64,000 bases of DNA from an uncultured Chloroflexia bacterium (GTDB lineage: Bacteria; Chloroflexota; Limnocylindria; Limnocylindrales; CSP1-4): NCBI GenBank assembly GCA_963741445.1, contig CAVUIE010000006.1, positions 15,926-79,925 of the forward strand, written 5' to 3'. The translations under genes and the position numbers were made by a program. Within the stretch, counting starts at the first letter, position 1, and each line of letters opens with the position of its first letter. The notes beneath the pieces were generated by a model. That model ran no database searches. It saw nothing but the letters and a program-made list of their open reading frames with translations, and was not told where the DNA came from. This document shows positions 3,352 to 22,301 of this stretch, piece by piece.

Positions 3352-3364
3352 GGTGGTCGGTGCC

Positions 3365-4267: not shown

Positions 4268-4621
4268 TGGGCCATCTCCGACTTGCGCGGGATCGGCGTC
4301 TCGTGGGCGGGCGGCGAGGGCCGGGCCGCCGGAGACGCCGCCGCTCTGGATCAGCTCGGCGAGCCGGTGCTTGTCGAAGGCGGCCTCGAGGCGCTCAGCC
4401 TCGGCGGTCACCTCGGTCTCGATGTCGTCGCCGCAGCGGCGCTGCTCGCGGCGCCATTCCTCGATGTAGTCGTTGTAGGCGCTCTTGCCGGCGCGCGCGG
4501 CCGCCTTGTCGATGGCGACCTGGAAGCGCGGATGGAGGACCTGCTTGCTCTGGCGACGGCCCTCGCGGGCGAGCACCTGCGCGGGGATGTCGCGCCACCA
4601 GATCACGGTCATCATGCCCAT
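4264..4621 (-). CDS. 'Virulence factor' domain (PF13769-like) protein; in frame with the downstream methyltransferase as sequenced
   Basis: VIWWRDIPAQV...LHPRFQVAIDKAA...YIEEWRR matches this family as I recall it. Confidence 0.7.
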
Positions 4622-4630
4622 CTCGGCCCC

Positions 4631-5240: not shown

Positions 5241-5318
5241 CTGCTAGCGGGCCTGCTATGAGTCGCGTCACTCACCGAGGTCCGAGGCGGAGCTCCGCGA
5301 CGCCATCGGCCCGAGGTT

Positions 5319-6020
5319 TCAGGCGACGCGGGCACGGCGTTCGTCGATCAGGCGCCGGGCCGTCTCGGCGGCCACGCCGGCATCGCGGCAGTAGGCGTCC
5401 GCGCCGACCGCCATCCCGAACTCCTCGTTGAGCGGGGCGCCGCCGACCAGCACGATGTAGTCCTCGCGCCAGCCACGGTCCTTGAGCGTCTGGATGACGA
5501 CCTTCATGTACGGCATCGTGGTCGTCAGGAGCGCCGACATCCCGAGGATGTCCGGGTGGTGCTCCTCGAGCGCGGCCATGAACTTGTCGGCGTCGGTGTT
5601 GATGCCGAGGTCGAAGACCTCGAAGCCGGCACCCTCGAGCATCATCCCGACCAGGTTCTTGCCGATGTCGTGGATGTCACCCTTGACCGTGCCGATCACG
5701 ACCTTGCCGACCGGCTCGGCGCCGGTCTCGGCGAGGAGCGGGCGCAGGATCGCCATGCCGGCCTTCATCGCGTTGGCGGCGAGCAGGACCTCCGGCACGA
5801 ACAGGATGCCGTCGCGGAAGTCGATGCCGACGATCTTCATGCCCGCGACGAGCGCGTCGTCGAGGACCTTCGTGGCGGAGAAGCCGCGCCCGAGCAGGAT
5901 GTTCGTCCCCTCGACGATCTCGTCCTTCATCCCGTCGTACAGGTCGTTGTGCATCTGCTCGACGAGCTCGTCGTCGGACAACGCCGCGAGGTCGATCTCC
6001 GCGTACTCGTCCTGGGTCAT
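5319..6020 (-). CDS. Corrinoid (B12-binding) methyltransferase cognate protein
   Basis: Intact ORF; cap domain FVPEVLLAA, then GDIHDIGKNLV (DxHxxG), SALLTTT, GGAP. Confidence 0.95.
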   Translation of the reverse strand: MTQDEYAEIDLAALSDDELVEQMHNDLYDGMKDEIVEGTNILLGRGFSATKVLDDALVAGMKIVGIDFRDGILFVPEVLLAANAMKAGMAILRPLLAETGAEPVGKVVIGTVKGDIHDIGKNLVGMMLEGAGFEVFDLGINTDADKFMAALEEHHPDILGMSALLTTTMPYMKVVIQTLKDRGWREDYIVLVGGAPLNEEFGMAVGADAYCRDAGVAAETARRLIDERRARVA

Positions 6021-6074
6021 CGGTGTCGCTCCGTCGCGTGTCGTGCCGGATCGTGGTCTGGTCTGAGGGTTGGG

Positions 6075-6111
6075 GGTTCCACGATGTGGAACCGTACCGT
6101 ATGATGGAACC
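6075..6111. promoter_or_regulatory. Tandem palindromic operator, probably for the adjacent IclR regulator
   Basis: Perfect GGTTCCAC-GAT-GTGGAACC (6075-6093) followed by a degenerate copy GTACCGTATGATGGAAC (6094-6110), between divergent genes. Confidence 0.65.
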
Positions 6112-6142
6112 GCGACCCGGAATTTAGCCGACAGGGAGGTCC

Positions 6143-6893
6143 ATGTCCAGCGTCCAGGCCATCAGGCGGGCATTCGACGTGCTGGGCGCGCTCGCGGCCG
6201 GTCCGCTCGGCGTGACCGAGGTCGCGGATCGCTCCGGGCTACCCAAGTCCACCGCGGCCCGGATGCTGGCGACGCTGGTCCACGAGGGCGCCGTCGAGCA
6301 GGTGCCGGGCGACTCGCGCTACCGGCTGGGACCGCGGATGGCGACCCTTGCCGCGGGGCTCACGCCGGCCCGGTCGCTGGCGGCCGTGGCCCATGCCACC
6401 CTCGCGGCGCTCGCGGCGTCGGCGGGCGAGGCGGCCGGCCTGTCCGTCCCGGACGGCGACCTCGTCCACTACATCGACCAGGTCGACACCCCCAATCCCG
6501 TCTCGGTCCGCGACTGGACCGGGAGCCGGGTGCCGCTCCACGCCGTCTCGTCCGGCCAGGTGCTGCTGGCGTTCCGGCCACCGGCCGCGGTCGAGCGGTA
6601 TCTCGAGCGACCGCTCGAGCGGTTCACGCCGCGGACCGTCGTGGACCCGGAGGCGCTGCGCGAGCGACTGCGTGAGATCCGCCGCGATGGGTACGCCTGG
6701 GTCCTCGAGGAGTTCGACGAGGGGATCGCGTCCGTGGCGGCGCCGATCGCCGACGGGTCCGGCGAGGTCATCGCCGCGGTCCATCTCCACGGGCCGTCGT
6801 ACCGCTTCCCGTCGGACGGCACCGCGGAGGCCGTCGCAGAGAGCCGTGGTCGGCAGCGCGGCCCGGATCGCCAGGAGCCTGCGCCGGACGTAG
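6143..6893 (+). CDS. IclR family transcriptional regulator; frameshift near the 3' end
   Basis: SVQAIRRAFDVL, GLPKSTAARML HTH, PLHAVSSGQVLLA, GYAWVLEE...GIASVAAPI; GGAGG RBS. Confidence 0.93.
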
Positions 6894-7322
6894 TCCTGTC
6901 GCGCCGGTGCGTGGCGCCGGCCTGTGGCGCCTGGCGACCCGGCACAACTGTCACCCACAGAACGCTTTGGCCGATACCGCGCCGATCCCCCGGCGTTGGA
7001 GCCGGTCCGGGTGGACGGTGAGGGCCGCACAAGCACGAACGCGCGCCACTGCCGGTTCGGATGGAGGCCCCGAAGCCCCGGGATCGGCCATAGCGGTCCA
7101 GGGGCGGGAATTGGGCCAGGTTGTGTCAGACGCCGCACGTTGTCGCGGGTGTCGGGCCCCGAGGACCCGCCCGGACAGGCGGACCGCGCCGCGCAACCCG
7201 AGACATCGCCTTCATCCGCTCTTCACGGCGCCGACGGCATCCTGTGGCCACGCCGCGAACCCACGCGGTCCAGCATTCCGTCCCCGCGCTCACCGCGGGG
7301 TTCTGGCAGGAAGGAGTTCGTC

Positions 7323-7868
7323 TTGGCGAACCACCGACGCCGCTCACTCGCCGCCAGTCTGCTCGTCTTGAGCGGACTGACCGCCGCCCTCGTCGGGCCG
7401 GCGGCCACCTTCGCCGCCTCGCCCGACGCGACGACCGCGACGACGGCCTGCAGCGAGACCCATTGGCCGGTCTCCGTGCAGGGGAAGCCCTTGACCCTCA
7501 AGACGGGCGCCAGGGCCGGCGACTACCTCTGGCACGACTCCACCGGGTGGCACCTGCGCGTGACGCACCCCGGGTCGGCCAAGGTCACCTTCACCGGGCG
7601 CATCGTCTCGAGCGCGCCGATGACCTTCAAGCCGGCGCGACTCGAGAAGGGCGACACGATCACCCTGAGCGCCGACAAGAAGACGCTGACCTACAAGTTC
7701 TACAACTACGGCAAGATCGACGGTGTCGACTTCAAGACCGCCTGCGCGCAGCGCCTGTCGATCGCCGCTGCGATCAACGGCCACAAGCTCGCGCCGAGCC
7801 GGATCTGGCTCGGCCGGCACGGGCGGCATCCGCTCGAGAACCGGTTCGTGGTCGTCAAGATCGCGTGA
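7323..7868 (+). CDS. Hypothetical secreted protein
   Basis: AAGGAG RBS, TTG start, signal peptide ending ATFA, Lys-rich beta-like body (GDYLWHDSTGWHLRV). Confidence 0.7.
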   Translation: MANHRRRSLAASLLVLSGLTAALVGPAATFAASPDATTATTACSETHWPVSVQGKPLTLKTGARAGDYLWHDSTGWHLRVTHPGSAKVTFTGRIVSSAPMTFKPARLEKGDTITLSADKKTLTYKFYNYGKIDGVDFKTACAQRLSIAAAINGHKLAPSRIWLGRHGRHPLENRFVVVKIA

Positions 7869-7891
7869 TCCAGACCTGACCCGGGGACATC

Positions 7892-7921
7892 ACGGCGGCG
7901 GTCGGCGACGACCGCCGCCGT
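7892..7921. terminator. GC-rich hairpin between convergent genes
   Basis: ACGGCGGCGGTCG-GCGA-CGACCGCCGCCGT, 13-bp stem with GNRA loop. Confidence 0.6.
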
Positions 7922-7988
7922 CGCATGTCTGCGAGGTCCGGGGTCGTGAGCCCAGCCGGACCGGGCTCGGCCAGCGCGATCACGAACC

Positions 7989-8695
7989 TCAGCCGGAGCG
8001 GGCGACGGCCTCCACCGGCTGCATGCGATGCTCGGCGATGAGCGTCTGGGCGTCGAACTGTCCGCGCCCCAGCACGAACCAGATCGCGGTGACCGGCACC
8101 TCGCCGATGTTCGCGAGGCGATGCGGGATCGTCGAGTTGATCGAGATCGCGTCACCCGGCCCCAGGACGAACTCCTCGAACCCGATCCGCACCTGGAGCG
8201 TGCCGGTCAGCACGTAGCCCCATTCGTGCCCGGCATGGCGTTGGAAGGCATCCTCCGGGCTCGATGCCCCGCCGACCTCGTAGGTCACGTGCAGGAACTC
8301 GATCCCCGGCTCGGACATCGTGGTCAGGCGCTCCCAGAGCACGCCGGACGCGAGGCGGATCGGTGCCGGTCGTCCGCGCGCTGCAGCGGCGCCCCGGTCG
8401 CCATCGTGCCGACGGCCCCGGCCTGGGTCGGCGGCGGGACGGTCTCGGCCGGCCGGCGCTCGTTGAAGAGCAGCTCGTCGAGCGAGACGTCCAGCTCGCC
8501 GGCGATCGCGTACAGCGTGCTGACCGACGGGTTCGCCCGCCCCGTCTCGATCTGCGAGATCAGGCTCGGGGAGACGCCCAGCCGGTCGGCCAGCTCGCGC
8601 AGGCTGAGCCCGCGGCCGCGGCGCGCCTCGCGCAGCGCGTCGCCCATCTCGGGGTGGTCCAGCTTGCCGTTGCGGGGAGTTCGAACCGTGGTCAA
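7989..8695 (-). CDS. XRE-family HTH regulator with C-terminal cupin domain; frameshifted
   Basis: LREARRGRGLSLRELADRLGVSPSLISQIETGRANPSV; RHAGHEWGYVLTG...GDAISINSTIPHRLAN. Confidence 0.9.
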
Positions 8696-8780
8696 ACGCC
8701 TGCGTCCTTCGATCCTGGTCTGCGCCCGTTGTGCCAGATTATCCGCGTCGGCCGGGCCTGCCGCCGATCCGGTCGCCGGC

Positions 8781-9488
8781 CTACCGGCAGTGCCACCCGC
8801 CGTCGACGATGAGGTCGACGCCGTTGACGCCGGTGTTCTCCAGCAGGAACACGGTGGCATCGACGATCTCGGCCATCGTCGCGAGGCGGGCGATGGGGGT
8901 CTCCGAGGTGTACTTGGCGATGGCGGCCGGCTTCTCGGACCAGTACGGGCTGTCGCCGACGACGCCCGGATGGATCGAGTTGACGCGGTGCGGCCTGAGC
9001 TCCTCGACCAGCGTCCTGGTCAGGCCGACGACCCCGCCGTTGACGGTCGTGACCGTGGTCGAGCCCGGATACGGGCGCTCCTTGGCCATCCCGCCGAAGA
9101 GCACCAGCGAGGCGTCGTCGGTCAACCGGTCGCGGAGCGTGTGGACGACCTCCGTGTAGCCGACGAGCTTGAGCGTGACCAGGCGGATCGCCCGGACGAG
9201 GTCGTAGTCGGCGACGGTGTTCTGGTCGCGGTCGATGGCCGCCAGGACGAGGCGGCGGACCGGCCCGACATCGGCGAGCGCGGCCGCGATCGAGGTCGGC
9301 TCCGCGAGATCGAAGGTGCGCCCCGTCGTCGAACCGCCGACCTCGGCGACCGCGCTCGCCACGTTCGCGGGGTCTCGCCCAGTGAGGACGACCGTGTCGC
9401 CCTGCGACGCGTAGTGCCGGACGATCTCCTGGCCGATCGCCCTGGTGCCGCCGACGACGACCACCGCTCCCTGGGATGCCTGGCTCAC
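8781..9488 (-). CDS. SDR family oxidoreductase (atypical active site)
   Basis: VVGGTRAIG Rossmann motif, RVNSIHPG, NGVDLIVDGG; no clear YxxxK. Confidence 0.85.
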   Translation of the reverse strand: MSQASQGAVVVVGGTRAIGQEIVRHYASQGDTVVLTGRDPANVASAVAEVGGSTTGRTFDLAEPTSIAAALADVGPVRRLVLAAIDRDQNTVADYDLVRAIRLVTLKLVGYTEVVHTLRDRLTDDASLVLFGGMAKERPYPGSTTVTTVNGGVVGLTRTLVEELRPHRVNSIHPGVVGDSPYWSEKPAAIAKYTSETPIARLATMAEIVDATVFLLENTGVNGVDLIVDGGWHCR

Positions 9489-10408
9489 GATCGCTCCTCC
9501 GTTCTGCTGGTCTCGTAGCGCTCCCAGTCGCGGACCCAGCGATAGGAGTGGCGCGCCGGCGGTTGCGGGGCCTGGGTCTCGATCCAGCGGACCCGCTCGT
9601 CGCCGGTGTTGTAGAAGCCGTGGACCGAGCCGGTGGGGGCGAACGCGAAATCACCGGGTCGGAAGGTGTAGTGCTGGCCGTCGAACTCGCCCTCGACCTC
9701 GCCGGCGAGGAAGACGTACGCCTCCTCGAACGGGTGGTCGTGCGCCTGGGCGGCGCCGCCCAGCTCGTAGTCGACGGTGAACATCGTCACGTGGTCGGCG
9801 CCGAACTGGTGGTCGACCAGCATCTTCACGGAGATGCCGCTGTAGACGACCAGCGCGGTGTCGCGGCCGGCGGAGGCGCGGCCACGCGCCATCGTCCTTG
9901 ATGCGCAGCGTCTCCAGCTGCGGGCCGGTGCCGTCGTAGTGGCCGACCAGGCGGAGCGTCGGGTCGCCGAACGGCGGACGGATCGCGACCGCGTCCATCG
10001 CGGCGAGGTCCTGCGCCGGCTCGAAGAACGTGTCCTTGCGACCGGCGTCGGGGCCGAGTCGCATCGGCGATGAGAGCGACAGCATCCGGATCGGGCGCCG
10101 GCTGCTGTTGCCCGAGCGCGTGGCGGTAGCCGGTCGGCATCAGCGAGTAGTCGCCCGCGGTGAGGCGATGCACCGTCCCGGCGAGCTCGAGCAGCAGCTC
10201 GCCCTCGAGGATGTAGAGCGATTCCTCGAAGCTGTGGACGTGCGGTGCGAGCCAGCCGCCCGGCTGGATCACCGCGACCGCGAGGTCCGTGTGGACCGCG
10301 CCCTGCTCGGGACCGACGATGCGAACGCGCGCCACCCCGGACGAGATGGCGCTGTCAGGCGCCGGGTGATCGGCGAACGACCAGTCGATGTGGCCGACGT
10401 GAGTGCAT
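9485..10408 (-). CDS. Bicupin protein; frameshifted
   Basis: Two cupin metal motifs: PHVHSFEESLYILEG...RHA and AHDHPFEEAYVFLAG...VHGF. Confidence 0.85.
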
Positions 10409-10424
10409 GCCGCGCTGACTCCCG

Positions 10425-11411
10425 CTACTCGAACCGTCGCGACCAGGCGTCGACGCCGACGGCCAGCAGCAGGATGACACCGAGCGTGACCTGCTGGTAG
10501 AACGGGTCGAAGCCCGAGCAGGTTGAACCCGTTGCGCGATGAGGGCGACGAACAGGCAGCCGAGCACCGTCCGGCCGATGGTCCCCTCGCCGCCGAGGAT
10601 GCTGGTGCCGCCGACGATGATGCCGGTCAGCACGGTGAACGTCAGGAACTGGCCGCTGCTCGCCTGGGCGCTCAGGACCCGCGACGCGTCGAGGACCCCG
10701 GCCATCGCCGCGGCCGTGCCGCTCAGCGCGAAGGTCGCGACCCGGATGGCGTTGACCCGGACGCCGCCGAGCCGCGCGGCCTGCGTGTTGCCGCCGGTCG
10801 CGTAGACGTAGCGCCCGAACGTCGTCCGGCTCAGCAGGATCATCGCGAGGATCGCGATGGCGATCATCATCCAGGCGCCGCTCGTGATGCCCAGGATCTT
10901 GGTGGCCGCGAACGCCTGGAAGTCGGCCTGGTCGAGGGCGACGACGAGGTTGCCCTTCGTCACGATCGCGGCGATCCCGCTGACGACGAACGTCATCGCC
11001 AGCGTGCCGATGAGCGGGTTGATCCGGAACCGGGTGACGATGATCCCGTTCGCGATCCCGACGGCGAGCCCGACCGCGAGACCGGCCAGGATCCCCGACC
11101 GGCGCGGACACCGCGGTCGCGATCTGGAGCGACGACGGCGGCCGCCAGCCCGTAGATGGCCCCGATCGACAGGTCGATCCCGCCGGCGATCAGGACGAAG
11201 GTCCCGGCGCAGGCGACGATGATGATCCCGGCCTGCTGGTCGAGGATGTTCGTCAGGTTGGCGATCTTGAGGAACGGCGGCGCGATGATCGCGAGGACCG
11301 ACGAACGCGATCAGGAACGGGATCAGGATCCCGGCCCGGCTCGACGATCCGGCCGAGACGCTGCGACAACGGGACGGCCGGCTGGCCGGTCTCGACCGCC
11401 TCCTGCGTCAT
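10425..11411 (-). CDS. Sugar-type (CUT2, RbsC-like) ABC transporter permease; frameshifted
   Basis: [30 protein letters not shown]...[20 protein letters not shown]. Confidence 0.9.
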
Positions 11412-12926
11412 GCCGCGCTCGACGTGGTCGTGCCGAACGCTGCGCCCACGATCGCCTCCTCCGTCATGTCCGGACCCGACAGCTCTGCGACGAGGCGCCC
11501 GGACGCGCATGACGAGCACCCGGTGCGCCAGGCCGAGGATCTCCTCGACCTCGTTGGAGATCAGCAGGATCGCCAGCCCGCTCGCGGCGAGCTTGACCAG
11601 GACCTCGTAGATGTCCCGCTTGGCCCCGACGTCGATGCCGCGGGTCGGCTCGTCGGCGAGCAGCACGCCCGGGCCGATCAGGAGCGACCGGGCGAACAGG
11701 AGCTTCTGCTGGTTGCCGCCCGACAGCGACCCGGCCAGGCGCATCGACGAGGTCGGTGCCGTCCACCTTGTCCAGCGCCGCCCGGACCTCCGTCCGCTCG
11801 GCCCCGCGCCGGACGAAGCCGAGCCGCTGGAACCGGCCGAGGCTGGTCAGGCTGACGTTCTCGCGGATCGACCGGCGGAGGATCAGGCCGTCGTCCTTGC
11901 GCGACTCGGGGATCATCGCGACGCCGGCCTTGATCGACGACGCCGGCTGCCCGCCGACGGGCGCGCCGCGCACGAGGACCTGCGCCGGCCTGAGCGGGCT
12001 CGCCCCGTAGATCGCCCGCGCGAGCTCGGACCGCCCCGCCCCGACCAGCCCGGCCAGGCCGACGATCTCGCCCGCCCGGAGGGTCGAGGGACACGTCGGT
12101 CACGCCCGGAGCCGACAGGCCCTCGATCGCGATGGCGACCGGGGCGTCGGCGCGACGGCGGCTGCTTCGGTGGATAGGCACGACCGACCGGCCGGCCGAG
12201 CATCCCGGTGACCAGGCTCGCCTCGGTCTCGTCGGCGATCGGTCCGGTCCGCACGACGCGCCCGTCGCGCAGGACGGTGACGACGTCGGACAGGTCGAGC
12301 ACCTCGCCGAGGAAGTGCGAGACGAGGATCACCGTGTGGCCCCGCGCGCGCAGACCGCGCACGACCTCGTGCAGCCGCTCGATCTCCTTCGCCGACAGGC
12401 TGGCGGACGGCTCGTCGAGGACGATGAGGTCGGCGTCCCGCGCCAGCGCGCGGAGGATCTCGACCTGCTGCTGCTGGGCGAGCGGCAGTCGACCGACGAT
12501 CGATCCCGCCTTGATGTCGAAGCCGGCGTCGGCGACGAGCCGGTCGAACCGGTCGCGGAGCGTCCCGCGCTCGATGAACCCGGCGCGCCTGGGCTCGGCC
12601 CCGAGGAAGACGTTCTCGGCGGCGGTCAGCCTGGGGACCAGGGCGACCTCCTGGGCGACGAGGGCGATCCCCTGCGTCAGGGCCTCGCGCGGGGAGCGGA
12701 ACGAGACGGTCGTCCCGCGCAGGACCAGGTCGCCCTGGTCCTGCGGGAAGACCCCCGCGATGATCTTGCCGAGCGTGGACTTGCCGGCACCGTTCTCGCC
12801 GACGAAGGCGTGGACGGTGCCGGCGCGGACCGCCACCGAGACCTCGTCGAGGGCCCGGGTCGCCCCGAAGGACTTGCCGAGCCCGCGAACTTCGAGGCGG
12901 GCGGCGTCGCTGGCCTCGGTGGCCAT
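11408..12926 (-). CDS. Sugar-type ABC transporter ATP-binding protein (RbsA-like, two NBDs); frameshifted
   Basis: [43 protein letters not shown]. Confidence 0.92.
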
Positions 12927-12951
12927 CGCGTCAGCCGACGGGATCGGCCCG

Positions 12952-14046
12952 TCAGCCCGGCCACTCCGCGAGCGGCAGGAAGTGGTCGACGTTCGCCTTG
13001 GTGACGACGCCGCCGTCCTGGAGCGTTGCGAGCGGATCCACGCCCGGGGCCGGGGTCCCGGTCCGGATGGCCTGGATGAGCTGCGTCGTGCCCTGGCCGC
13101 CCTCGGTGGCCGGCATCTGCATGACGGTCCCGAAGCGCTCGCCGGAGGCGATGCCCTGGAGGGCGATCGTGCCGCCGCCGTAGCCGACGAGGCGGACCTT
13201 GTCCTTGATGTCCTTGACCGCGGCGACCGCGCCCGTGATGGCCTGGTCGGCGCTGACGATGACCGAGACGTCCGGGTGGGCCGCGACGATGTCCTGCGAC
13301 GCCTTCAGGCCGAGGGCCGTGGTGTAGAAGGACTCGCCGGTGTCGGACACGACCTTGATCTCGGGATGGCTGGCGATCGCGGTGTCGAACGCCTGCTTGA
13401 GGGCCTGGTCGAGGGCCGCGGCCTTGACCGACCAGATGTAGCCGACGTTGCAGGGGTTGGCCTTGAGGTCGGCACAGGCGGCGACCACGAGCTCGCCGAT
13501 CTTGCGGCCGAGCTCGCTCGGGACGAACGCGACGTTCGCGCTCAGGCCCGGGACCTGCGAGTCGGGGGTCGTCATGTCCGACCCGAGCACCTGGTCGATG
13601 TTGCCGACGGCGATGCCGGCGGCGATCGCCTTCTTGACGTCCTCGACCAGCCCGGCGCCGTAGAGCGGCTGGGTGATGATCGCGTCGTACTTGCCGGACG
13701 CGGTCGCGTCCTGGAGCTGCTTCGTCTGGGCGGCCGGGTCGAGGTTCGCGTCGAACACGGTCAGCTTGGCGTTGCCGGCGGCCGCGGCGGCCTGCGCGGC
13801 CGCGAGCATCGGGGCGTCATAGCTGTTCGCCACCGCGAACGAGAGATAGGCGATCTCGAGGGTCTTCGCCGGCGCCGATGCCGACGGGGCGGCGGCGCTG
13901 GGGGCCGCGGCGCTCGCCGCGGTCGTCGGCGCGGCGGCACTGGGGGCCGTCGTGGCCGCCGGGCTGCTACAGGCTGCGAGGATGAGGCTGACTCCGATCA
14001 AGCCCAGCAGGCGTTCCCGCCTGGGCCGGCCGTTTCGTGCGCGCAT
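12952..14046 (-). CDS. Sugar-type ABC transporter substrate-binding lipoprotein
   Basis: Lipobox LAAC, Ala/Pro/Ser linker, periplasmic-binding-protein type I features (VFDANLDPAAQ, LVGYGG); GGAGGA RBS. Confidence 0.88.
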   Translation of the reverse strand: MRARNGRPRRERLLGLIGVSLILAACSSPAATTAPSAAAPTTAASAAAPSAAAPSASAPAKTLEIAYLSFAVANSYDAPMLAAAQAAAAAGNAKLTVFDANLDPAAQTKQLQDATASGKYDAIITQPLYGAGLVEDVKKAIAAGIAVGNIDQVLGSDMTTPDSQVPGLSANVAFVPSELGRKIGELVVAACADLKANPCNVGYIWSVKAAALDQALKQAFDTAIASHPEIKVVSDTGESFYTTALGLKASQDIVAAHPDVSVIVSADQAITGAVAAVKDIKDKVRLVGYGGGTIALQGIASGERFGTVMQMPATEGGQGTTQLIQAIRTGTPAPGVDPLATLQDGGVVTKANVDHFLPLAEWPG

Positions 14047-14087
14047 GTGTCCTCCTCCACCGATCAAGCGCCTCGGCGCTGCGGCGG

Positions 14088-14116
14088 AGTGTGCAGAGCC
14101 GGTAAACAGGTGTCAA
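14088..14116 (-). promoter_or_regulatory. Sigma70-type promoter of the ABC operon with an overlapping operator
   Basis: TTGACA-17 nt-CACACT on the minus strand; TGTGCA-N7-TAAACA box at 14090-14108. Confidence 0.6.
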
Positions 14117-14239
14117 GCCACATTGCAAGATTGTGGAGCGGTGTCGATCATCCGTTCGCTCCCACTGTCCACGGCGACCGCGCGATCGCGCCGTCACCGG
14201 AACGGCACCGGGACCGCGACCGTCCCGTTCCGTCCGGAC

Positions 14240-14276
14240 TTGCGCGGCCGGACCGGCTGTGTAGCATGGATGAACA
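14240..14276 (+). promoter_or_regulatory. Sigma70-type promoter of the enzyme operon with an overlapping operator
   Basis: TTGCGC-16 nt-TAGCAT; TGTGTA-N7-TGAACA box at 14258-14276. Confidence 0.55.
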
Positions 14277-14334
14277 CTTCGGCCCTCCTGCGCGGATCCG
14301 CCGATCCGCCGATCGACCGCACTGGGGTACTGCG

Positions 14335-15576
14335 ATGACCCGATCCTTCGCTTCGCCGGGCTCGATGAACGTCGACTGGGAGGAGCGCTGGAACGTCGAC
14401 CGACTGCGCACCTACCGGCTGGGACGCGCCCGTGCGGCGCTCGCGGCCTCGGAGGTCGGCGCGGTCCTGCTGTTCGACTTCAACAACATCCGCTACGTCA
14501 CCAGCACCCACATCGGCGAGTGGGCGCGCGACAAGATGACGCGCTACGCGCTGCTGACCCGCGGCGGCGATCCCCACGTCTGGGACTTCGGCTCGGCGGC
14601 CAAGCACCATCGGCTCAACTGTCCGTGGATGCGGCCCGAGAACATCCACGCCGGCATGGTCGGGCTGCGCGGCGCCGTGGCCGCGGACGCCGGCCTGTTC
14701 CGGTCGGCCGCGAAGGAGATCGCCCGGATCCTCAAGGACGAGGGCGTCGCGGACATGCCGATCGGCATCGACCTCGCCGAGCCGCCGATGCTGGCGGCCC
14801 TCGCCGACGAGGGCGTCACGGTGCTGGACGCGCCAGCAGGTGATGCTCGACGCCCGCGAGGTCAAGTCGATCGACGAGATCATCCTGCTCAACACCGCGT
14901 GCGCGATGGTCGACGGCGCCTACCAGATGCTGGCCGAGCAGCTGAAGCCCGGGGTCCGCGAGAGCGAGCTGGTGGCCAACGTGACGAAGGCGCTCTTCGA
15001 CATGGGCTCCGAGCACGTCGACAACATCAACGCCGTCTCGGGCGAGCGCTGCAGCCCGCATCCCCACGTCTTCAGCGACCGGCTGATCCGCCCCGGCGAC
15101 CAGGCCTTCTTCGACATCATCCACACGTTCGTCGGCTACAAGACCTGCTACTACCGGACGTTCGTGGTCGGCAAGGCGCACCGACCCGCAGCGCGACGCC
15201 TACAAGCGCGCCCGGGAGTGGATCGACGCCTCGATCGAGCTCATGCGTCCCGGGCGTGACCACCGACCAGGTCGCCAAGGTCTGGCCGAAGGCCCAGGAG
15301 TTCGGCTTCGACAACGAGATGGAGTGCTTCGGGCTCCAGTTCGGCCACAGCGTCGGCCTGTTCCTCCACGAGCGCCCGATCATCAGCCGGCTCAACTCGA
15401 TCGACCACCCGGTCGAGCTCAAGGAGGGGATGGTCATCGCGCTCGAGACCTACTGCCCGGCCAAGGACGGCGTCTCCGCCGCGCGGATCGAGGAGGAGGT
15501 CGTGGTCACGGCCGACGGCCCGGTGGTCATCACGAAGTTCCCGTCGGACGAGCTGTTCGTCGCCAACGCGTACTAG
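14335..15576 (+). CDS. M24B (Xaa-Pro peptidase/creatinase/DddP-like) family enzyme; frameshifted
   Basis: LFDFNNIRY, DAREVKSIDEI, FFD...GYKTCYYRT, GHSVG, ALETY, RIEEEVVV. Confidence 0.88.
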   Translation: MTRSFASPGSMNVDWEERWNVDRLRTYRLGRARAALAASEVGAVLLFDFNNIRYVTSTHIGEWARDKMTRYALLTRGGDPHVWDFGSAAKHHRLNCPWMRPENIHAGMVGLRGAVAADAGLFRSAAKEIARILKDEGVADMPIGIDLAEPPMLAALADEGVTVLDAPAGDARRPRGQVDRRDHPAQHRVRDGRRRLPDAGRAAEARGPRERAGGQRDEGALRHGLRARRQHQRRLGRALQPASPRLQRPADPPRRPGLLRHHPHVRRLQDLLLPDVRGRQGAPTRSATPTSAPGSGSTPRSSSCVPGVTTDQVAKVWPKAQEFGFDNEMECFGLQFGHSVGLFLHERPIISRLNSIDHPVELKEGMVIALETYCPAKDGVSAARIEEEVVVTADGPVVITKFPSDELFVANAY

Positions 15577-15589
15577 GAGACACGAGCCG

Positions 15590-16589
15590 ATGGCGACCAC
15601 CGCGCCCGACATCGAGCGGGCCACCCAGCTGCGGATGTACCGGACGATGCAGGAGTGCCGCCTGTTCGAGGTCCGCGCCCAGGAGCTGTTCTTCGAGGGC
15701 CTCGTGCGCGGCACGACCCACCTCGGCGTCGGGCAGGAGGCCGTGGCGGCCGGGGTCGCGGCCGCGATGCGCGACGACGACTACACGTTCTGCACGTACC
15801 GCGGCCACAACCACACGCTCGCCCGGGGCGTGCCGATGGCGCCGATCTTCGCCGAGCTGTTCGGGCGCGGGACGGGCCTCCTCGGCGGCAAGGGCGGGTC
15901 GATGCACCTGACCAGCGTCGAGCACCACGCGATGGGCTCGTACGCGATCGTCGGCGCGCACCTGCCGATCGCGCTCGGCGCCGCGTGGTCCGCGCAGTAC
16001 CGCAAGTCCGGCCAGGTGGCGGTCTGCTTCTTCGGCGACGGCACCACCAACATCGGCGTCGTTCCACGAGGCGCTCAACATGGCCGCGGTCTGGAAGGCG
16101 CCGGTGGTGTTCGTCTGCGAGAACAACCAGTACATGGAGTACACGGCGATCGGCGACGTGACCGCCGTCCCGCGACCCGCCGCGGACCGGGCGAGCGCCT
16201 ACGGCCTCGAGGCGATCGTCGTCGACGGCAACGACGTCGAGGCGGTCCACCGGGTCGCGCGGACCGCGGTCGACCGGGCGCGCGCCGGCGACGGCCCGTC
16301 GCTCATCGAGGCCATCACCTACCGCCACGGCGGCCACTCGCGGGCCGATCCCGGCAAGTACCGGCCCGACGACGAGGTGGCCGCCTGGAAGGCGCGCGAT
16401 CCCATCCCGGCCTACCGCGCCCAGCTGCTCGCGGACGGCGCCGACGAGGCGGGCCTCGACGCGATCGACGAGGCGGCCCGCGATGCCGTGGCCGCCGCCG
16501 AGGCGATCGCGCGGGAAGCACCGGAGCCCAGCCCGGACGTGCTGGAGACCCAGGTCTGGGCGGACGGAGGCTCGGCGTGGCGGAACTGA
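15590..16589 (+). CDS. ThDP-dependent 2-oxoacid/acetoin dehydrogenase E1 alpha subunit; frameshifted
   Basis: HLGVGQEA, TYRGH, GKGGSMH, FFGDG...ENNQY, TYRHGGHSRAD. Confidence 0.92.
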
Positions 16590-17564
16590 CGTACCGCGCG
16601 GCCTTCGCCGCGGCGATCGCCCAGGAGATGGAGCGCGACCCGAGCGTCGTGCTCATCGGCGAGGACGTCGGCGCGGCCGGCGGCGTGTTCAAGCTGACCG
16701 AGGGCCTCTACGGCCGGTTCGGCGGCGAGCGCGTCCGCGACACGCCGATCAGCGAGCAGGCGATCGTCGGTGCCGCGATGGGCGCGGCGATGACCGGGCT
16801 GCGGCCGGTCGCCGAGCTGATGTTCAGCGACTTCTTCGCGGTCGCCTGGGACATGGTCGCCAACCAGATCGCCAAGACCCGCTACATGACCGACGGCCAG
16901 GTCTCGCTGCCGCTGGTGCTCCATACCGCGAACGGGGCCGGGCCTCCGCTTCGGCGCGCAGCACAGCCAGAGCGTCGAGAACTGGGCGATGGCCATCCCG
17001 GGGCTCAAGGTCGTCGCGCCGTCGACGCCGGCCGACGTGATGGGCCTGATGGCCGCCTCGATCCGCGACCCCGACCCGGTGGTCTTCTGCGCCTCGAAGG
17101 CGCTGCTCGCGACCAAGGGCGAGGTCCCCGACGGCGAGCACGTCGACACGCTCGGGACCGCCCGCGTCGTCCGCGCCGGGAAGGACGCCACGATCGTCGC
17201 GCTCGCGTCGATGGTGCCGAAGTCCGTCGAGGCGGCGGACCGGCTGGCCGCCGAGCACGGCCTCGACATCGAAGTCATCGACCTGCGCTCGCTCGTCCCG
17301 CTCGACACCGCCACGATCCTCGCCTCGGTCAAGAAGACCAGCCGCGTCTTCACGGTCGAGGAGAACCCGCGGCTGTGCGGCTGGGGCGCGGAGGTCGCCT
17401 CGATCATCGCCGACGACGGCTTCTACAGCCTCGACGCGCCGATCGTCCGGATCACCACGCCGCACATCCCGCTGCCCTCGGCGGCGACCCTCGAGGACCT
17501 CGCGGTGCCGTCGGTCGAGCGGATCGCCGAGACCGTCAAGAGGCGCCTGGATGACGCCGCCTGA
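16577..17564 (+). CDS. ThDP-dependent dehydrogenase E1 beta subunit; frameshifted
   Basis: GEDVG, RVRDTPISEQAIVG, GLRPVAE, AQHSQS, IPGLKVVAPS, EVIDLRSLVPLD. Confidence 0.92.
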
Positions 17565-18470
17565 CGGCCGACCGACCGTCGGGTTGCTGGGCACCGGCCG
17601 GATGGGCTCGGCGATGGCGCGGGCGCTGGCCGCGGCCGGGTTCGAGGTCGTCCTCTGGAACCGGACCCCGGGACCGGCGGCCGAGCTCGCGGCGGCGATC
17701 GACGGACGCGCCGTCGCGACGCCGGCCGACGCGGCCCGCGCGGCCGACGATCTGCGTGACGATGCTGGCCGACGGCGCGGCGGTGGACGCGGTCTACGCC
17801 GGCCCGGACGGGCTGCTCGCCGGGGCGCATCCCGGGAGCGTCTTCGCGGATGCCTCGACGGTGGCGCCGGCCACGCTCCGTGCCCACGCCGCGGCGGCGA
17901 GCGCGGCCGGCGCGGGCCTCCTCGACACCCCGGTCTCGGGCAGCGTCGGGCTCGCCGAGAGCGGGAAGCTGACGATCATGGTCGGCGGGCGCGGCCGCGG
18001 ACCTCGAGCGGGCGCGGCCCGTCCTCGAGGCGCTGGCGGCGACCGTCTTCCACCTCGGGCCGCTGGGCACCGGCGCGGCGATGAAGCTCGCCGTCAACAC
18101 CGCTGATCTTCGGGCTCAACCAGGCCGTCGCCGAGGGGCTCAGCCTCGCCGAGGCGGCCGGCATCGACGGCCCGCCGCCTACGACGTCCTGACCGCGAGC
18201 GCCGCCGGCGCGCCGCTCGTCGGCTACAAGCGGGCCGCGTTCCTCGAGCCGGAGACGACCCCGGTCGCGTTCTCGCTCGACCTCGCGGCCAAGGACCTGC
18301 GGCTCATCGCGGCGCTCGCCGAGGCCGTCGGCGTGGACATGCCGCAGGCCGCACGAACCTCGCACGCGATCGAGTCGGCCGCCGCGTAGGGCGGCGGCGA
18401 CCGCGACTTCTCCGCCGTCGCGAGCGCCACGCGGACCACCGCCGTCGGAAGCAGAGGAGGACCGGGCTGA
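17551..18470 (+). CDS. NAD(P)-dependent beta-hydroxyacid dehydrogenase (3-hydroxyisobutyrate dehydrogenase family); frameshifts and an in-frame TAG at 18387
   Basis: GLLGTGRMG, WNRT, DTPVSGS, MKLAVN, KDLRL, GDRDFSAV. Confidence 0.85.
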
Positions 18471-18546
18471 CCGACCACATGGCAGGGGCCGGCCGGCCCG
18501 TCGAGCGAGCACACGCGATCGTCGAAGCAGCACAGAGGAGGCCGCA

Positions 18547-19943
18547 ATGAGCGAACGAACGCTGATCAAGGATGCCATCGTCCTCTCGATCGACCCCGAC
18601 ATCGGGGAGTTGCCGCGCGCGAGCATCCTGATCGAGGACGGCAAGATCGCGGCCGTCGGGCCGAACGTGACGGCCGACGGCGCGAAGGTCATCGACGCGA
18701 CCGGCGACATCGTCATCCCGGGCTTCATCGACACCCACCGCCACACCTGGGAGACGTCGATCCGGACCAGCGCGCCGGACTTCGCGCTGATCACCTACTT
18801 CGGGTCGCATCCTCGACAAGTTCGCCCCGCACTACCGCCCGGACGACGTGCTCGCCGCGAACCGCTGGGGCGCGCTCGAGTCGATCAACGCCGGGATCAC
18901 GACGCTGGTCGACTGGTCGCACATCATGAACACGCCGGACCACGCGGACGCGGCGATCCACGGCCTCCAGGACACGGGCATCCGGTCGGTCTTCGCCTAC
19001 GGGTTCGGGAACACGTCGCTCGTCGACTGGTGGTTCGGGCCGGACTACACGGGCAGCGTCCTGACCTCCGACGGCGCCGAGGCCCGCCGCCTGCGCAAGC
19101 AGTACTTCAGCTCCGACGACCAGCTCGTCACGATGGGCGCTGGCCACGCGCGGCACCGGGTTCTGCAAGCCCGACGTGGTCCGCCACGACTGGGAGCTCG
19201 CCAAGGAGCTCGACCTCAACATCACCGTCCACGTCGCGATGGACCGGTTCGGCTACACGAAGCTCCAGGTCCTCGCGCTGCGCGACATGGACCTGCTCTA
19301 CCCGAACACGACCTACGTCCACGCCTCGCACTTCACCGACGAGGAGTGGGCGCTCGTCCGCGACTCGGGCGGGAACGTGTCGTTCGCCCCGCAGATCGAG
19401 GTCCAGATGGGCCACGGCTGGGCGCCCGCGGTGACCGCGCTCAAGTACGACGTGCCGATCGGCCTGTCGTCCGACGTCGCCACGACCGCCCCGTCCGACC
19501 AGTTCACCCAGATGCGCTCGATCCTCGGCTCGGAGCGCGGTCGCAAGCACCAGGAGGCGTGGGACGCGAACCTCGACGGGCTCGAGGCGTCGCCCGGGCT
19601 CATCACCTCGCGGCAGGTCCTCGAGTGGGCGACGCTCGGCGGCGCGAAGGTCGCCGGCATCGACGACCGGACCGGATCGATCACGCCCGGCAAGCAGGCC
19701 GACCTCGTGATCATCGACACGTCCGCGGTGAACGTGTCGCCGGTCATCGACCCGGTCGGCGCGGTCGTCTGCGCCGCGGACGTCTCGAACGTCCGGACCG
19801 TCCTGGTCGGGGGCAACGTGGTCAAGGACGACTTCCGGCTGAAGGCCACGCTCGACGCGCCGCGGAAGGACGTCGAGGCCAGCCGCGACTACCTGCTCGG
19901 GAAGTTCGGCGATCCCGAGCCGGGCTGGATCATGCCCGCCTGA
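18547..19943 (+). CDS. Amidohydrolase (deaminase/chlorohydrolase-like) family protein; frameshifted
   Basis: PGFIDTHRH, AGITT, VHVA, VHASH, GLSSD, GSITPGKQADL. Confidence 0.9.
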
Positions 19944-19962: not shown

Positions 19963-19988
19963 GAGAGCCCGGCTTCGGCCGGGCTCTC
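19963..19988. terminator. Hairpin between convergent genes
   Basis: GAGAGCCCGGC-TTCG-GCCGGGCTCTC, 11-bp stem with UUCG loop. Confidence 0.75.
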
Positions 19989-19992
19989 GGCG

Positions 19993-20846
19993 TTACGGGG
20001 CCGGCACGCTCCAGTCGATCCGCATCGACGCCCGGAGGACGCCGCCCGGCTCGAGGATCGCGAGACCGGTCCGGGCCGCCTCGGCCTCGCCGCCGGCGAG
20101 CGCGTTCGGCCAGGCGGTCTGCGGCTCGACGCAGAAGGCATGGGGCGGCGTGTAGACGACGACCGAGTTCACCGGCGCGTCCCAGGAGATCCGCAGCTCG
20201 AGGTCGGGGAACGTCGCGACCGCCGGCGAGCGCGGGTCGACGTAGGCGTGGTCGACGTGCCGGCCGGCGATGGGGTTGCCGGGTCGCAGGTCGGTCATGC
20301 CGCGGACCGGGATGCGCCGCCCGGTCGGGATCATGTCCCGCGTCTGGAGGACCTCGTCGGCGTCCACGCGCAGCCGCGGCCCCGGCGCCTCGCGGCGGAA
20401 CCACGGGTGCCAGCCGAGGGCCGCCGGCATCCGCCGCTCGGCCTCGACCTCGGCCTCGATCTGGACGCCGGTCGGCTCGATCGTGAACCGCTGCCGGGCG
20501 ACGCCGCCGAACGGCCAGCCCGCCGGCCCGAGGTCGCAGGCGAGCTCCGCGACGGCGCCGATCCACCCGGGTCGTCGTCCACGGCACGGTCGAACACCAC
20601 GCCGTGGATCGCGTGCCGGCCCAGCGTCGCGGGCATGACGTAGCGGCGCCCGTCGAAGTCGAAGATGCCGCCGTCGAGGCGGCCGACCCACGGCGCCATG
20701 AGGAAGCTGCCCCATTCGATGGAGCGGTCCGTGGCATCCGGCGGGCCGAGCAGGACCTCGCGGTCGCCGAGGCAGAGCGACGACAGCCGGCCGCCGCGCT
20801 CGAGGTCGATGCCGAGCCGCGCGCGCCCCGCGACGAGCTCGATCAC
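19993..20846 (-). CDS. Aldose 1-epimerase family protein; frameshifted
   Basis: RGGRLSSL, MAPWVGRL, HAIHG, GWHPWF, CVEPQT. Confidence 0.85.
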
Positions 20847-22301
20847 GACCCGTGCGCCGGGGCGGCGGCCGCGAGCTCGATCGCGCCCCGGAACGCGGCG
20901 ATGCGATCGAGCCGCTCGTCGTCGCGCGGCAGCGGATCCAGCAGGCGGCCGGCGCTGGTCCCCCAGCGGCGCGCGATCACGGCCGGGTCCTCGTCGCGCC
21001 ACGCCGCGGTCGCCTGGACCGCGGCACCGATCGCCACGAGCTCGTCGGCGTCGGGGATGAGCACCGGTCGCCCGGAGAGGCGGCGGACGACGTCGACCCA
21101 GGTCCGCCCGCGCGACCCGCCGCCGACCAGCATGAGCGGGGCGTCGTCGTCGAGCCCGCCGACCGCGGTGCCGATGGCGTCGAGCGCCTCGAGCAGCGCC
21201 GCGGCGGCGCCCTCGTAGGTCGCCATGAGGATCTGCTGCGAGCGTGGAGGTGTGGCGGAGGCCGAGGATCGTGCCGGCGGCGCCGGGCAGGTCGGGCGTG
21301 CGCTCGCCGTCGAGGTAGGGGTAGACGACGACCGAGCCGGCCGGCGCGACGTCGTCGCGGTCCAGGCCCAGCCACGCCGCGGTGCGGTCGACCGCGAGCG
21401 TGCAGTTGAGCGTGCAGGCGAGCGGCAGGAAGCGGCCCGACGGCGTCGGCGAAGCCCGCGACGACCCCGGTCGGGTCGGCCGTGGGCCGCTCGGAGACCG
21501 CGAAGATCGTGCCCGAGGTCCCGAGGCTCATCGCCGTCTGGCCGACGCCCAGCCCGAGGCCGAGCGCCGCGCCCATGTTGTCGCCGGTGCCCGGCCCGAC
21601 GACGGTCCCGGGGGCGAGGCCGAGCTCGTCGGCGACGGCGGACGTCACCTCGCCCGCCAGCTCGCGCGGGCCGAGGAGTCGCGGCAGGAGGTCGGCGTCG
21701 CAGCGCGACCGACGGGTGGTCGAGGATGGCCGGCTCGTAGGCGCCGGTCGTGGGCGACCACCAGCCCGTCCCCGACGCGTCGCCCCGGTCCGTGGCGGCC
21801 GCGCCGGTCAGCCGGCCGGTGACGTAGTCGTGCGGCAGCTGGACGGCCCGGCGCCGCGGCCGCGACCGCCGGCTCGGTGCGACGGAGCCAGGCCCACTTC
21901 GAGACCGTGAACGAGGCGTTCGGGCGGAGCCCGGTGAGCCTCGCCCAGCGCTCCGCGCCGAGCTCCTCGGTCAGGCGCTCGGCATCGGCCGCGGCTCGGG
22001 TGTCGTTCCAGAGCGAGGCGTCGCGCAGCGGCTCGCCGGCCGCGTCGAGGACGACCAGGCCGTGCTGCTGGCCGGCGACGGAGATCGCGCCGACATCGCC
22101 GGCGCGACCGGTCTCCGCCAGCGCGTCGCGGACCGCGGACCACCAGCCGCGCGGGTCGGACTCGCGGGCGCCGTCCGTGCCGGTGACCACGTGGGCGGCC
22201 TGGCCGCGCGCGACGACCTCGCCCGTGTCGGGGTCCACCAGCAGGATCTTGGTCGACTGGGTCGAGCAATCGACCCCGGCGACGAGCCGTCCACCCGTCA
22301 C
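20843..22301 (-). CDS. xylB: Xylulokinase (FGGY carbohydrate kinase); frameshifted
   Basis: AGVDCSTQSTK, VAGQQHG, LWNDTR, GTGDNMGAALG, SLGTSG, GERTP, VGGG. Confidence 0.85.

Follow-up and report, generated by a model that had tools for sequence, protein, structure and literature searches.

The window analysed here is a stretch of 64,000 nucleotides from contig CAVUIE010000006.1 of assembly GCA_963741445.1, an uncultured Chloroflexia bacterium of the order Limnocylindrales, and our subject is the gene cluster at its positions 7989–19943, eleven genes in two divergent operons. The cluster is real, conserved and of catabolic type; it is built from known enzyme families and is unexplained, and the copy in the window is ridden with errors. 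Its core consists of eight genes, encoding an XRE-cupin regulator, an M24 enzyme, the alpha and beta chains of a thiamine diphosphate (ThDP)-dependent E1, an amidohydrolase, a bicupin, a protein resembling short-chain dehydrogenases/reductases (SDR) and a dehydrogenase. We think it probable that the region holds a copy of an uncharacterised catabolic unit, conserved widely and built on this core, to which a CUT2 (sugar-type) importer has been added in this lineage, between the divergent promoters.

Gene content and conservation

The window has a G+C content of 72%, and genes were therefore called by third-position GC and homology, not by the length of open reading frames (ORFs). All stop-to-stop fragments of the coding strand were scanned against Pfam, with tblastn searches by intact orthologues as a second line; the reference locus, L003, comes from a genome of the same genus (G008) and holds the same eleven genes as intact ORFs. 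On the minus strand, the fragments carry Peripla_BP_4 (the substrate-binding protein), two ABC_tran domains (the ATPase), BPD_transp_2 (the permease), a double Cupin_2 (the bicupin), an SDR domain and HTH_3 with Cupin_2 (the regulator); on the plus strand, they carry Peptidase_M24, E1_dh, Transket_pyr with Transketolase_C, NAD_binding_2 with NAD_binding_11, and Amidohydro_1. Both lines bear out the eleven products named in an earlier note on this DNA, in the order and orientation given there, and neighbouring genes abut or overlap. That note took the genes as intact, and here it erred: nine of the eleven are broken over two or three frames, in two to four pieces, and most of the Pfam domains are divided among fragments in different frames. 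The features of the region are as follows.

7875..7941, no strand: left GC-rich stem-loop, between convergent genes
7989..8695, minus: XRE-cupin regulator (HTH_3 + Cupin_2); 2 frames, break near 8360–8363; start TTG 8695 or ATG 8647; orthologue L003:12650–13360 intact, 237 aa (HTH_3 1.5e-18, Cupin_2 2.4e-17)
8781..9488, minus: SDR-like protein; intact, 235 aa; cofactor motif kept, catalytic YxxxK absent
9485..10410, minus: bicupin; 3 frames; two complete HxH..E..H metal motifs; start codon ambiguous
10425..11411, minus: ATP-binding cassette (ABC) permease (BPD_transp_2); 3 frames, four pieces; ATGA overlap with the ATPase stop; orthologue L003:9999–10976, 326 aa
11408..12926, minus: tandem ABC ATPase, two ABC_tran domains, RbsA/AraG-like; three pieces, 2 frames; orthologue L003:8494–9999, 502 aa
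12952..14046, minus: substrate-binding lipoprotein (Peripla_BP_4); intact; lipobox LILAAC
14236..14275, plus: promoter-like footprint TTGCGC-N16-TGTG-TAGCAT-NNN-TGAAC; conserved, upstream of M24
14335..15576, plus: DddP-like M24 enzyme; three pieces, 2 frames; single-base insertions near 14831, 15177, 15255; orthologue L003:5874–7106, 411 aa
15590..16589, plus: ThDP-dependent E1 alpha; 2 frames, insertion near 16057
16577..17564, plus: E1 beta; 2 frames, insertion near 16938
17551..18389, plus: beta-hydroxyacid dehydrogenase (like 3-hydroxyisobutyrate dehydrogenase/tartronate semialdehyde reductase); 3 frames; C-terminus uncertain; orthologue L003:2971–3855
18547..19943, plus: PRK08204-type amidohydrolase; 3 frames, insertions near 18805, 19135; orthologue L003:1486–2883
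19963..19988, no strand: right stem-loop, 11-bp stem, UUCG loop, between convergent genes

The sources named for identical or near-identical proteins and loci put the organism in Candidatus Limnocylindrales/Limnocylindria, Chloroflexota. A scan of relatives, with one genome per species, gave 80 loci, 72 of which have an M24 gene at ≥75% identity and form the Limnocylindria-type set. A partner gene was counted as present at ≥50% identity within 10 kb of the M24 gene, and several of the absences among the 72 are from loci cut by contig ends. The counts by partner are:

E1 alpha, 69/72 loci
E1 beta, 67/72
Dehydrogenase, 66/72
Amidohydrolase, 68/72
Bicupin, 67/72
SDR-like protein, 63/72
Regulator, 63/72
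Substrate-binding protein, 29/72
ATPase, 29/72
Permease, 28/72

All eight non-transport genes are found together in 51 of the 72 loci, the ABC trio in 28 and all eleven genes in 25. More distantly, the M24 subfamily (E ≤1e-60) occurs in 78 of 401 sampled genomes of the class of Nonomuraea (73 of 396 without the five flagged as unpublished), and we took 20 actinomycete regions from those 78 genomes, chosen for long contigs. Seven of these hold the full eight-gene block, in the order XRE-cupin / M24-E1 alpha-E1 beta-amidohydrolase-bicupin-SDR-dehydrogenase, and two more hold seven of the genes; the remaining regions represent a LacI-type variant, in which M24 is accompanied by another type of dehydrogenase, with or without E1 and an aldehyde dehydrogenase. 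Identity between the actinomycete and Limnocylindria proteins is 58–61% for M24, 56–64% for E1 alpha, 64–70% for E1 beta, 54–59% for the amidohydrolase, 57–62% for the SDR-like protein and 52–56% for the dehydrogenase, and 39–44% and 36–46% for the bicupin and the regulator. Since the gene set is conserved across two phyla, its linkage goes beyond chance, and since the same eight genes are co-inherited in rearranged order, we regard them as one functional unit. The co-occurrence of the eight genes in other genomes thus upholds the earlier description of the region as a discrete, catabolic-looking unit with a regulator of its own.

Outside the Limnocylindria-type set, a trio of M24, E1 alpha and E1 beta is found in three of the eight more distant loci, from a Nonomuraea species and two metagenome-assembled genomes (MAGs), one of Actinomycetota and one of Baltobacteraceae. 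The Nonomuraea trio lies beside LacI and AsnC regulators, a dehydrogenase and an aldehyde dehydrogenase resembling succinate-semialdehyde dehydrogenase (SSADH), and its locus further holds an amidohydrolase-type ‘Xaa-Pro dipeptidase’ and an SBP_bac_5 protein. The Actinomycetota MAG has its trio beside a Mo-hydroxylase subunit and LacI, and in the Baltobacteraceae MAG the neighbours are two Ldh_2 genes, a flavin monooxygenase, a dehydrogenase and a Peripla_BP_6 ABC system. The block is also found in cultured organisms: proteins whose source is named as Jiangella are 91–100% identical to the actinomycete-type M24 (84–86% for Phytoactinopolyspora), and because cultured, named Jiangella species carry the block, its function is open to experiment. 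DNA nearly identical to the locus occurs in many soil metagenome runs.

Two kinds of neighbour in these other copies may be recorded here. In three actinomycete copies (L125:6631–7185, L127:10247–10801 and L129:10170–10748), a PNPOx-family gene adjoins the XRE-cupin gene; it may be a ninth member of the block in those copies, possibly a flavin- or F420-dependent reductase. Near the Nonomuraea copy, L088:3407–5188 (plus strand) encodes a CATRA-N/CATRA-C protein with a TIR effector domain, of defence type.

Frame breaks and assembly quality

By tblastn with the L003 proteins, the substrate-binding protein and the SDR-like protein are the only ones whole in the window; the ATPase, XRE-cupin, M24, E1 alpha and E1 beta genes run over two frames each, and the bicupin, permease, dehydrogenase and amidohydrolase genes over three. 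Alignment to the L003 DNA resolves the breaks into isolated insertions of one base, near 10510, 10535, 11132, 11301, 11340, 11503, 11735, 12085 and 12152 on the left side and near 14831, 15177, 15255, 16057, 16938, 18805 and 19135 on the right, plus one deletion near 8363. The affected sites lie in conserved coding sequence and not within long homopolymers. We conclude that the frame breaks are errors of the assembly, in the form of single-base insertions, and not decay of the locus, because genes are split genome-wide, because the fragments have kept their codon bias and identity, and because metagenome contigs lack the extra bases.

The genome, in which the window belongs to contig C6, comprises 2.9 Mb in nine contigs. 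A metric of ORF length based on third-position GC (GC3) failed to tell this genome from clean loci and was replaced by a frame-split test with orthologues: 224 proteins of ≥250 aa from 25 loci of relatives were searched, and 28 gave a distinct target at ≥60% identity. Nineteen of these targets run over two or more frames, 8 of 10 inside the locus and 11 of 18 outside it, the latter test targets being located on contigs C1, C2, C3, C4, C6 and C7. The fragments of the cluster have a GC3 of 0.85–0.98, a strong codon bias, and are mostly 70–94% identical to intact orthologues, the dehydrogenase being lower at 53–60%. Contigs from four soil-metagenome runs, aligned at ≥90% likeness, omit exactly one base at 15179, 15248, 16059, 16938, 17750 and 18103, and again at 18361, 18808 and 19138/9; at 16059, contigs lacking the base account for 250.2 of a depth of 337 in run X2, for 253.6 of 289.9 in X3 and for 206.7 of 260.8 in X4.

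If the frameshifts were instead real, the cluster would be decaying in this organism and the locus would be an array of pseudogenes, which we regard as quite improbable. Nine broken genes out of eleven would fit such decay, and three further observations pull the same way: rpoB of the same genome is intact, with an open frame of 1175 aa, and the rate of indels is thus uneven; a minority of the metagenome depth at each site does not have the one-base deletion; and contigs aligned at ≥90% may stem from relatives rather than from this strain. Decay of the locus would not, however, split genes outside it on six contigs, nor would it leave a genome of just nine contigs with a completeness score of only 55.9%. 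The retained GC3 and identity of the fragments argue against it too. The breaks are almost without exception insertions of one base, in-frame stops and larger lesions are absent, and independent contigs are free of the extra base at nine or more of the sites. In the focal region, the assembly has about one frame-breaking insertion for every kilobase, and neither gene calls nor estimates of completeness drawn from it are reliable.

Enzymes, importer and regulation

The M24 enzyme has the Peptidase_M24 fold (PF00557, 123 bits against a gathering cut-off of 23), and the best named family over its full length is DddP (NF043017), at 122 bits against an equivalog cut-off of 600; PepQ (96 of 630 bits) and DoeA (65 of 613) also stay below theirs. 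The nearest structures are the Pyrococcus furiosus prolidase 1pv9 (93.6 bits, pita-bread domain) and DddP 4s01 (80.8 bits), the latter aligned over its full length (query 19–406, chain 51–443); creatinase 7yto matches at 34.2 bits, in the catalytic domain only. In the alignment to 1pv9, D259, H336, E369 and E384 fill four of the five positions that we take to be the ligands of the binuclear centre of prolidase, and the fifth is Cys270. This is the second ligand position, where DddP 4s01 has an Asp (‘cvdisrt’) and the query reads ‘c..yyrt’. All five residues are identical in nine of nine cluster-linked orthologues from both phyla, and the same nine share a motif, SGERCxPHPH, that is absent from more distant relatives. 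The enzyme thus resembles DddP and the M24B group (PepQ, aminopeptidase P, creatinase and DoeA) in its pita-bread domain and in four of five binuclear-metal positions, and differs from them in the change from Asp to Cys270, in the clade-specific motif, and in its partners, E1, amidohydrolase and bicupin, which are foreign to those enzymes. In a protein atlas, the M24 and cupin clusters bear generic names only (‘putative peptidase’, ‘cupin domain-containing protein’), and the part of PMC13738216 reached by a term search yielded no residue information.

The E1 pair is of the heterotetramer type, with E1_dh in the alpha chain (255 bits) and Transket_pyr and Transketolase_C in the beta chain, as in the pyruvate dehydrogenase (PDH), branched-chain 2-oxo acid dehydrogenase (BCKDH) and AcoABCL complexes. 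The nearest solved relative of the alpha chain is the human PDH E1 alpha 3exf (200.9 bits), but its score with the PDH model TIGR03182 is below the equivalog cut-off (342 against 393.85 bits); the beta chain exceeds the cut-off of PRK09212 (367 against 321 bits). Unlike those complexes, the pair has no linked E2 or E3: neither is encoded in or beside the block in the window or in L003, L082, L083, L085, L088, L125, L127, L128, L129, L132 and L141, unlinked E2 genes being outside this search, and the distant trios adjoin an aldehyde dehydrogenase, a Mo-hydroxylase or a dehydrogenase, never an E2. Because an enzyme that reduces or oxidises aldehydes follows E1, a release of free aldehyde is suggested.

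For the amidohydrolase, the L003 orthologue scores 521 bits with PRK08204 (NF006056; cut-off 391), a subfamily that is uncharacterised, and at best 165 of 522 bits with a named equivalog. Its best solved relatives are 3hpa, 4f0r and 4v1x. The metal ligands (HxH, His, His and Asp) are conserved in both phyla, in seven of seven aligned sequences, and together with the length and superfamily they link the protein to the TRZ/ATZ and guanine deaminase group (AtzA/TrzN and the deaminases of 8-oxoguanine, methylthioadenosine/S-adenosylhomocysteine and guanine). It is set apart from this group by its PRK08204 type, by scores far below the named equivalogs and by the sequence at the deaminase-Glu position, HVAMD, HVAMG or HVGDG, which has no Glu; the Glu of HxxE after strand 5 is presumably the deaminase motif of COG0402.

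In the bicupin, residues H56, H58 and E61 and H222, H224, E227, E228 and H262 are invariant among orthologues, and the His/His/Glu/His metal sites of both barrels are complete and conserved in both phyla. The predicted model (pLDDT 90.3) finds generic bicupins only in a Foldseek search, with quercetin 2,3-dioxygenase YxaG, oxalate decarboxylase OxdC and BacB at the top (E 7e-19 to 2e-15, TM 0.55–0.69) and salicylate dioxygenase and the ureidoglycine aminohydrolase family also among the matches. With two-metal bicupins such as these first three it shares the fold, as modelled, and the full metal motifs in both barrels; identity to all these matches is 12–19%, and they assign no reaction type. 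The earlier note called the SDR atypical, and rightly so: it matches adh_short at 69 bits and PRK07041 at 125 bits (cut-off 257) and keeps the cofactor motif GGTxGIG, but by inspection Val and Asn replace the catalytic Tyr and Lys of YxxxK (GSTTVSTVNGG) in the window, L003, L125 and L127. By its domains, NAD_binding_2 and NAD_binding_11, the dehydrogenase is assigned to the beta-hydroxyacid dehydrogenase family and falls below every equivalog cut-off (TIGR01505, 166 against 340.75 bits; TIGR01692, 153 against 291.6).

The importer is complete as a CUT2 system and resembles RbsABC, AraFGH and XylFGH in its lipoprotein substrate-binding protein, 502-aa tandem two-domain ATPase and BPD_transp_2 permease. 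It differs from them in scoring below all ligand-specific equivalog cut-offs (AraG, 459.7 of 689 bits; allose-binding protein, 35 of 335), the best solved relative of the binding protein being the sugar-binding protein 2ioy at 58 bits, and in being an optional addition: the 28 Limnocylindria-type loci mentioned and one of nine actinomycete regions holding the block have the ABC trio, and out-group loci have SBP_bac_5 or Peripla_BP_6 systems instead. The sugar-type importer is accessory and not part of the conserved core, and as an argument for a substrate of sugar, nucleoside or cyclitol type it is therefore weak, contrary to its use as a substrate clue in the earlier note. In a distant Chloroflexota variant (L082:3395–5905, minus strand), an 837-aa ORF joins a tandem ABC ATPase to a BPD_transp_2 permease, with a second permease next to it; this may be either a true fusion or a missed stop.

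The hairpins proposed as boundaries of the block, at 7892 and 19963, are real as judged by RNA folding against 200 shuffles. The left one folds at −74.4 kcal/mol, with z −4.82 on the plus strand (0 of 200 shuffles as good) and −3.59 on the minus strand, and the right one has z −3.43 on the plus strand (1 of 200 as good) and −2.01 on the minus strand. No T-tail is found at either hairpin and no terminator-like site in the region; the left stem-loop is likely a bidirectional terminator without a T-tail. Scans for consensus terminators (0 sites against a shuffle mean of 0.3) and promoters (0 against 2.0) are uninformative at 72% GC.

An operator motif shared by the two operons had also been proposed, and this we could not confirm, because the one strongly conserved element, upstream of M24, occurs once in the cluster and a search of the window found no second copy there. 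The element consists of TTGCGC, about 16 nt, TGTG-TAGCAT, 3 nt and TGAAC, within intergenic DNA that is otherwise unconserved, and its core, GT[GAT]TAGCA, is present in 42 of 86 M24 upstream regions (85 loci and the window); its layout suggests a promoter of the sigma-70 type with an extended −10, followed by a conserved element. The sole word common to the M24 leader and the region upstream of the XRE gene is the 11-mer CCGCCGATCCG, and a general repeat search of the region returned low-identity chance pairs only. An inverted TGCTAC located 39–46 nt upstream of the M24 element was considered as an operator and rejected, being found in only 7 of 42 regions. Of the 63 Limnocylindria-type loci with a regulator, 32 have its gene immediately divergent from M24; in the others, this window included, it lies at the far end of the left operon. 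With its N-terminal HTH_3, C-terminal Cupin_2 and position divergent from, or at the end of, the genes concerned, the regulator resembles XRE-cupin repressors of the PuuR type; it differs in scoring 58 bits against a PuuR model cut-off of 211.

Possible substrate and competing explanations

No enzyme of the cluster reaches the NCBIfam equivalog cut-off of a characterised enzyme, and no description of the gene set was found in the full-text literature searched, which did not extend to subscription journals and supplements; the earlier failure to match the genes to a characterised pathway thus stands. Of the six enzymes, two or three at most would find a place in any vitamin B6, ectoine, creatinine, pyrimidine, nicotinate, sulfonate or diketopiperazine route known to us. 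The earlier argument that two C-N hydrolases, a cupin and a ThDP enzyme point to an N-containing substrate is reasonable and remains the leading guess; our own best guess is a small N-containing heterocycle, a ureide, or an amidine or guanidino acid.

From the families, a tentative route can be drawn. The XRE-cupin repressor would sense the substrate or an intermediate and de-repress the divergent operons, and import of the compound would fall to the ABC system in those loci that have one. The amidohydrolase and M24 might each cleave a C-N bond, by ring opening, deamination or release of urea or amine, and the bicupin might perform a metal-dependent oxidative cleavage, decarboxylation or isomerisation. 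The E2-less E1 pair would then decarboxylate a 2-oxo acid or cleave an acyloin to an aldehyde, which the dehydrogenase would reduce to a hydroxy acid or, in the LacI-type lineages, the SSADH-like aldehyde dehydrogenase would oxidise. It is possible, though we hold it less firmly than the existence of the unit, that soil Chloroflexota and Actinomycetota share an undescribed pathway for a widespread N-metabolite, in which an M24 enzyme with a Cys in its metal site cleaves a non-peptide C-N (or C-S) bond and the E2-less E1 works on its own, as a decarboxylase or acyloin lyase, and passes its product to an aldehyde reductase. If so, the steps of M24, with its Asp-to-Cys metal site and CxPHPH motif, and of E1 would be new chemistry for their families.

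Several observations weigh against a conserved catabolic unit. Every enzymatic step is read from family membership, and the SDR-like protein, lacking the catalytic residues, may be no enzyme. The set also varies: L045, L057 and L077 are without E1 alpha and beta, and in L081, L082 and L086 a second PRK08204 amidohydrolase stands in place of E1. Finally, 44 of the 72 loci are without the ABC trio, and five annotated loci, Jiangella-type and related, have no transporter in the block. Because most loci are without a block transporter, a role with an endogenous metabolite or in biosynthesis has to be considered, the block then making or recycling a molecule of the cell itself, as in the salvage of a cofactor or metabolite or the production of a small natural product. 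E2-less E1 pairs do occur in natural-product clusters, and three actinomycete blocks lie within a few kilobases of genes for branched-chain amino-acid biosynthesis, beside the PNPOx-like gene. We find this unlikely, given the dedicated importer with a lipoprotein binding protein here and in 28 of the 72 loci, the repressor-type regulators (XRE-cupin or LacI), the prevalence of two hydrolases and a terminal aldehyde reductase or dehydrogenase in the set, and annotated blocks that contain no synthetases, ligases, carrier proteins or exporters.

Two more specific explanations would tie the cluster to known chemistry. One is a variant ureide/glyoxylate route, with the amidohydrolase and M24 as allantoinase and allantoate hydrolase, the bicupin as ureidoglycine aminohydrolase, E1 condensing or decarboxylating glyoxylate or hydroxypyruvate and the dehydrogenase, as a tartronate semialdehyde reductase, forming glycerate. 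The best model of the dehydrogenase is indeed tartronate semialdehyde reductase (166 bits, and 191 bits in L085), by sequence the bicupin finds its best PDB match in 1sq4, a ‘glyoxylate-induced protein’, members of the ureidoglycine aminohydrolase family turn up among its fold matches (1sef, 1sfn, 1sq4, 4e2q and 1rc6), and the L085 trio adjoins two Ldh_2 genes with scores like those of ureidoglycolate dehydrogenase. These scores are, however, far under the cut-offs (166 against 340.75 bits for the dehydrogenase; 37 against 338 bits for the bicupin with the (S)-ureidoglycine aminohydrolase equivalog), and for the Ldh_2 genes sulfolactate dehydrogenase is the higher-scoring model. Both metal sites of the bicupin are complete and its top folds are quercetinase and oxalate decarboxylase, the annotated blocks contain no uricase, allantoinase or urease genes, and the known glyoxylate carboligase belongs to another ThDP family; a ureide route is accordingly doubtful, and we would give it little weight. 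The other makes the substrate a methylated onium or guanidino compound, such as a sulfonium like dimethylsulfoniopropionate (DMSP), betaine, creatine or creatinine, with M24 as a DddP-type lyase or creatinase that feeds the neighbouring sarcosine and betaine genes. DddP being the best-scoring named family over the full length (PDB 4s01) speaks for it, as do flanks that hold an MttB-type corrinoid system, sarcosine oxidase subunits and a betaine ABC system, the corrinoid block recurring in 16–18 of 87 loci. Against this, the scores are low (DddP 122 of 600 bits, creatinase 34 bits), DddP has Asp where this clade has Cys, the flanks are shared among close relatives only and missing from the distant Chloroflexota and actinomycete loci, and those routes offer no place for E1, the bicupin, the amidohydrolase or the dehydrogenase. 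We consider an onium or guanidino substrate of this kind very improbable and retain the conserved catabolic unit as our reading of the region.

The flanking genes themselves are as the earlier note described, in that the cluster sits among genes of methylated-amine metabolism; what does not carry over is its step from there to an N-methylated substrate. Window positions 1–7021 encode an MttB-family methyltransferase (451 bits), the corrinoid activase RACo, a pterin-binding methyltransferase, DUF1638, a B12-binding protein and IclR. By their families, these form a complete system for corrinoid-dependent demethylation, here in a Chloroflexota bacterium of soil, and its methyl donor would be a quaternary amine. 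On the downstream side, an aldose epimerase and an FGGY kinase are accompanied by sarcosine oxidase subunits, an aldehyde dehydrogenase, a betaine ABC system and a gene resembling dimethylglycine dehydrogenase. The corrinoid block accompanies the cluster in close relatives only, the sarcosine oxidase genes do so in 2–5 of 87 loci and the betaine binding protein in none of 87, and the annotated actinomycete loci have other neighbours and none of the corrinoid, sarcosine oxidase or betaine genes. With the association confined to close relatives, we take these neighbours as inherited synteny and not as evidence of the substrate; like the transporter, they are weaker clues than the earlier note held.

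Limnocylindria are abundant uncultured soil bacteria, and the M24 subfamily is found in about one-fifth of the sampled actinomycete genomes. A conserved route of six enzymes without an assignable substrate is thus a gap in the reading of soil carbon and nitrogen turnover from genomes. It also carries a risk for annotation: M24 is liable to be labelled a DMSP lyase or prolidase, E1 alpha and beta may pass for a pyruvate dehydrogenase, and the amidohydrolase is likely to be named a chlorohydrolase or deaminase, labels of which none is supported here.

A few further features of the window lie outside the cluster. Between the IclR gene and the left hairpin, an ORF at 6924–7868 (plus strand) has an N-terminus resembling a signal peptide and matches no Pfam family; proteins 75–88% identical to it are found in 3 of 87 loci only. 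Directly past the right hairpin, 19993–21970 (minus strand) encodes an aldose 1-epimerase and an FGGY-family kinase, which are probably unrelated to the cluster because they lie beside it in only 3 of 87 loci. Farther downstream, at 36276–40299 (plus strand), two large signalling proteins, one with multiple GAF domains and GGDEF and the next with GGDEF and EAL, represent c-di-GMP turnover.

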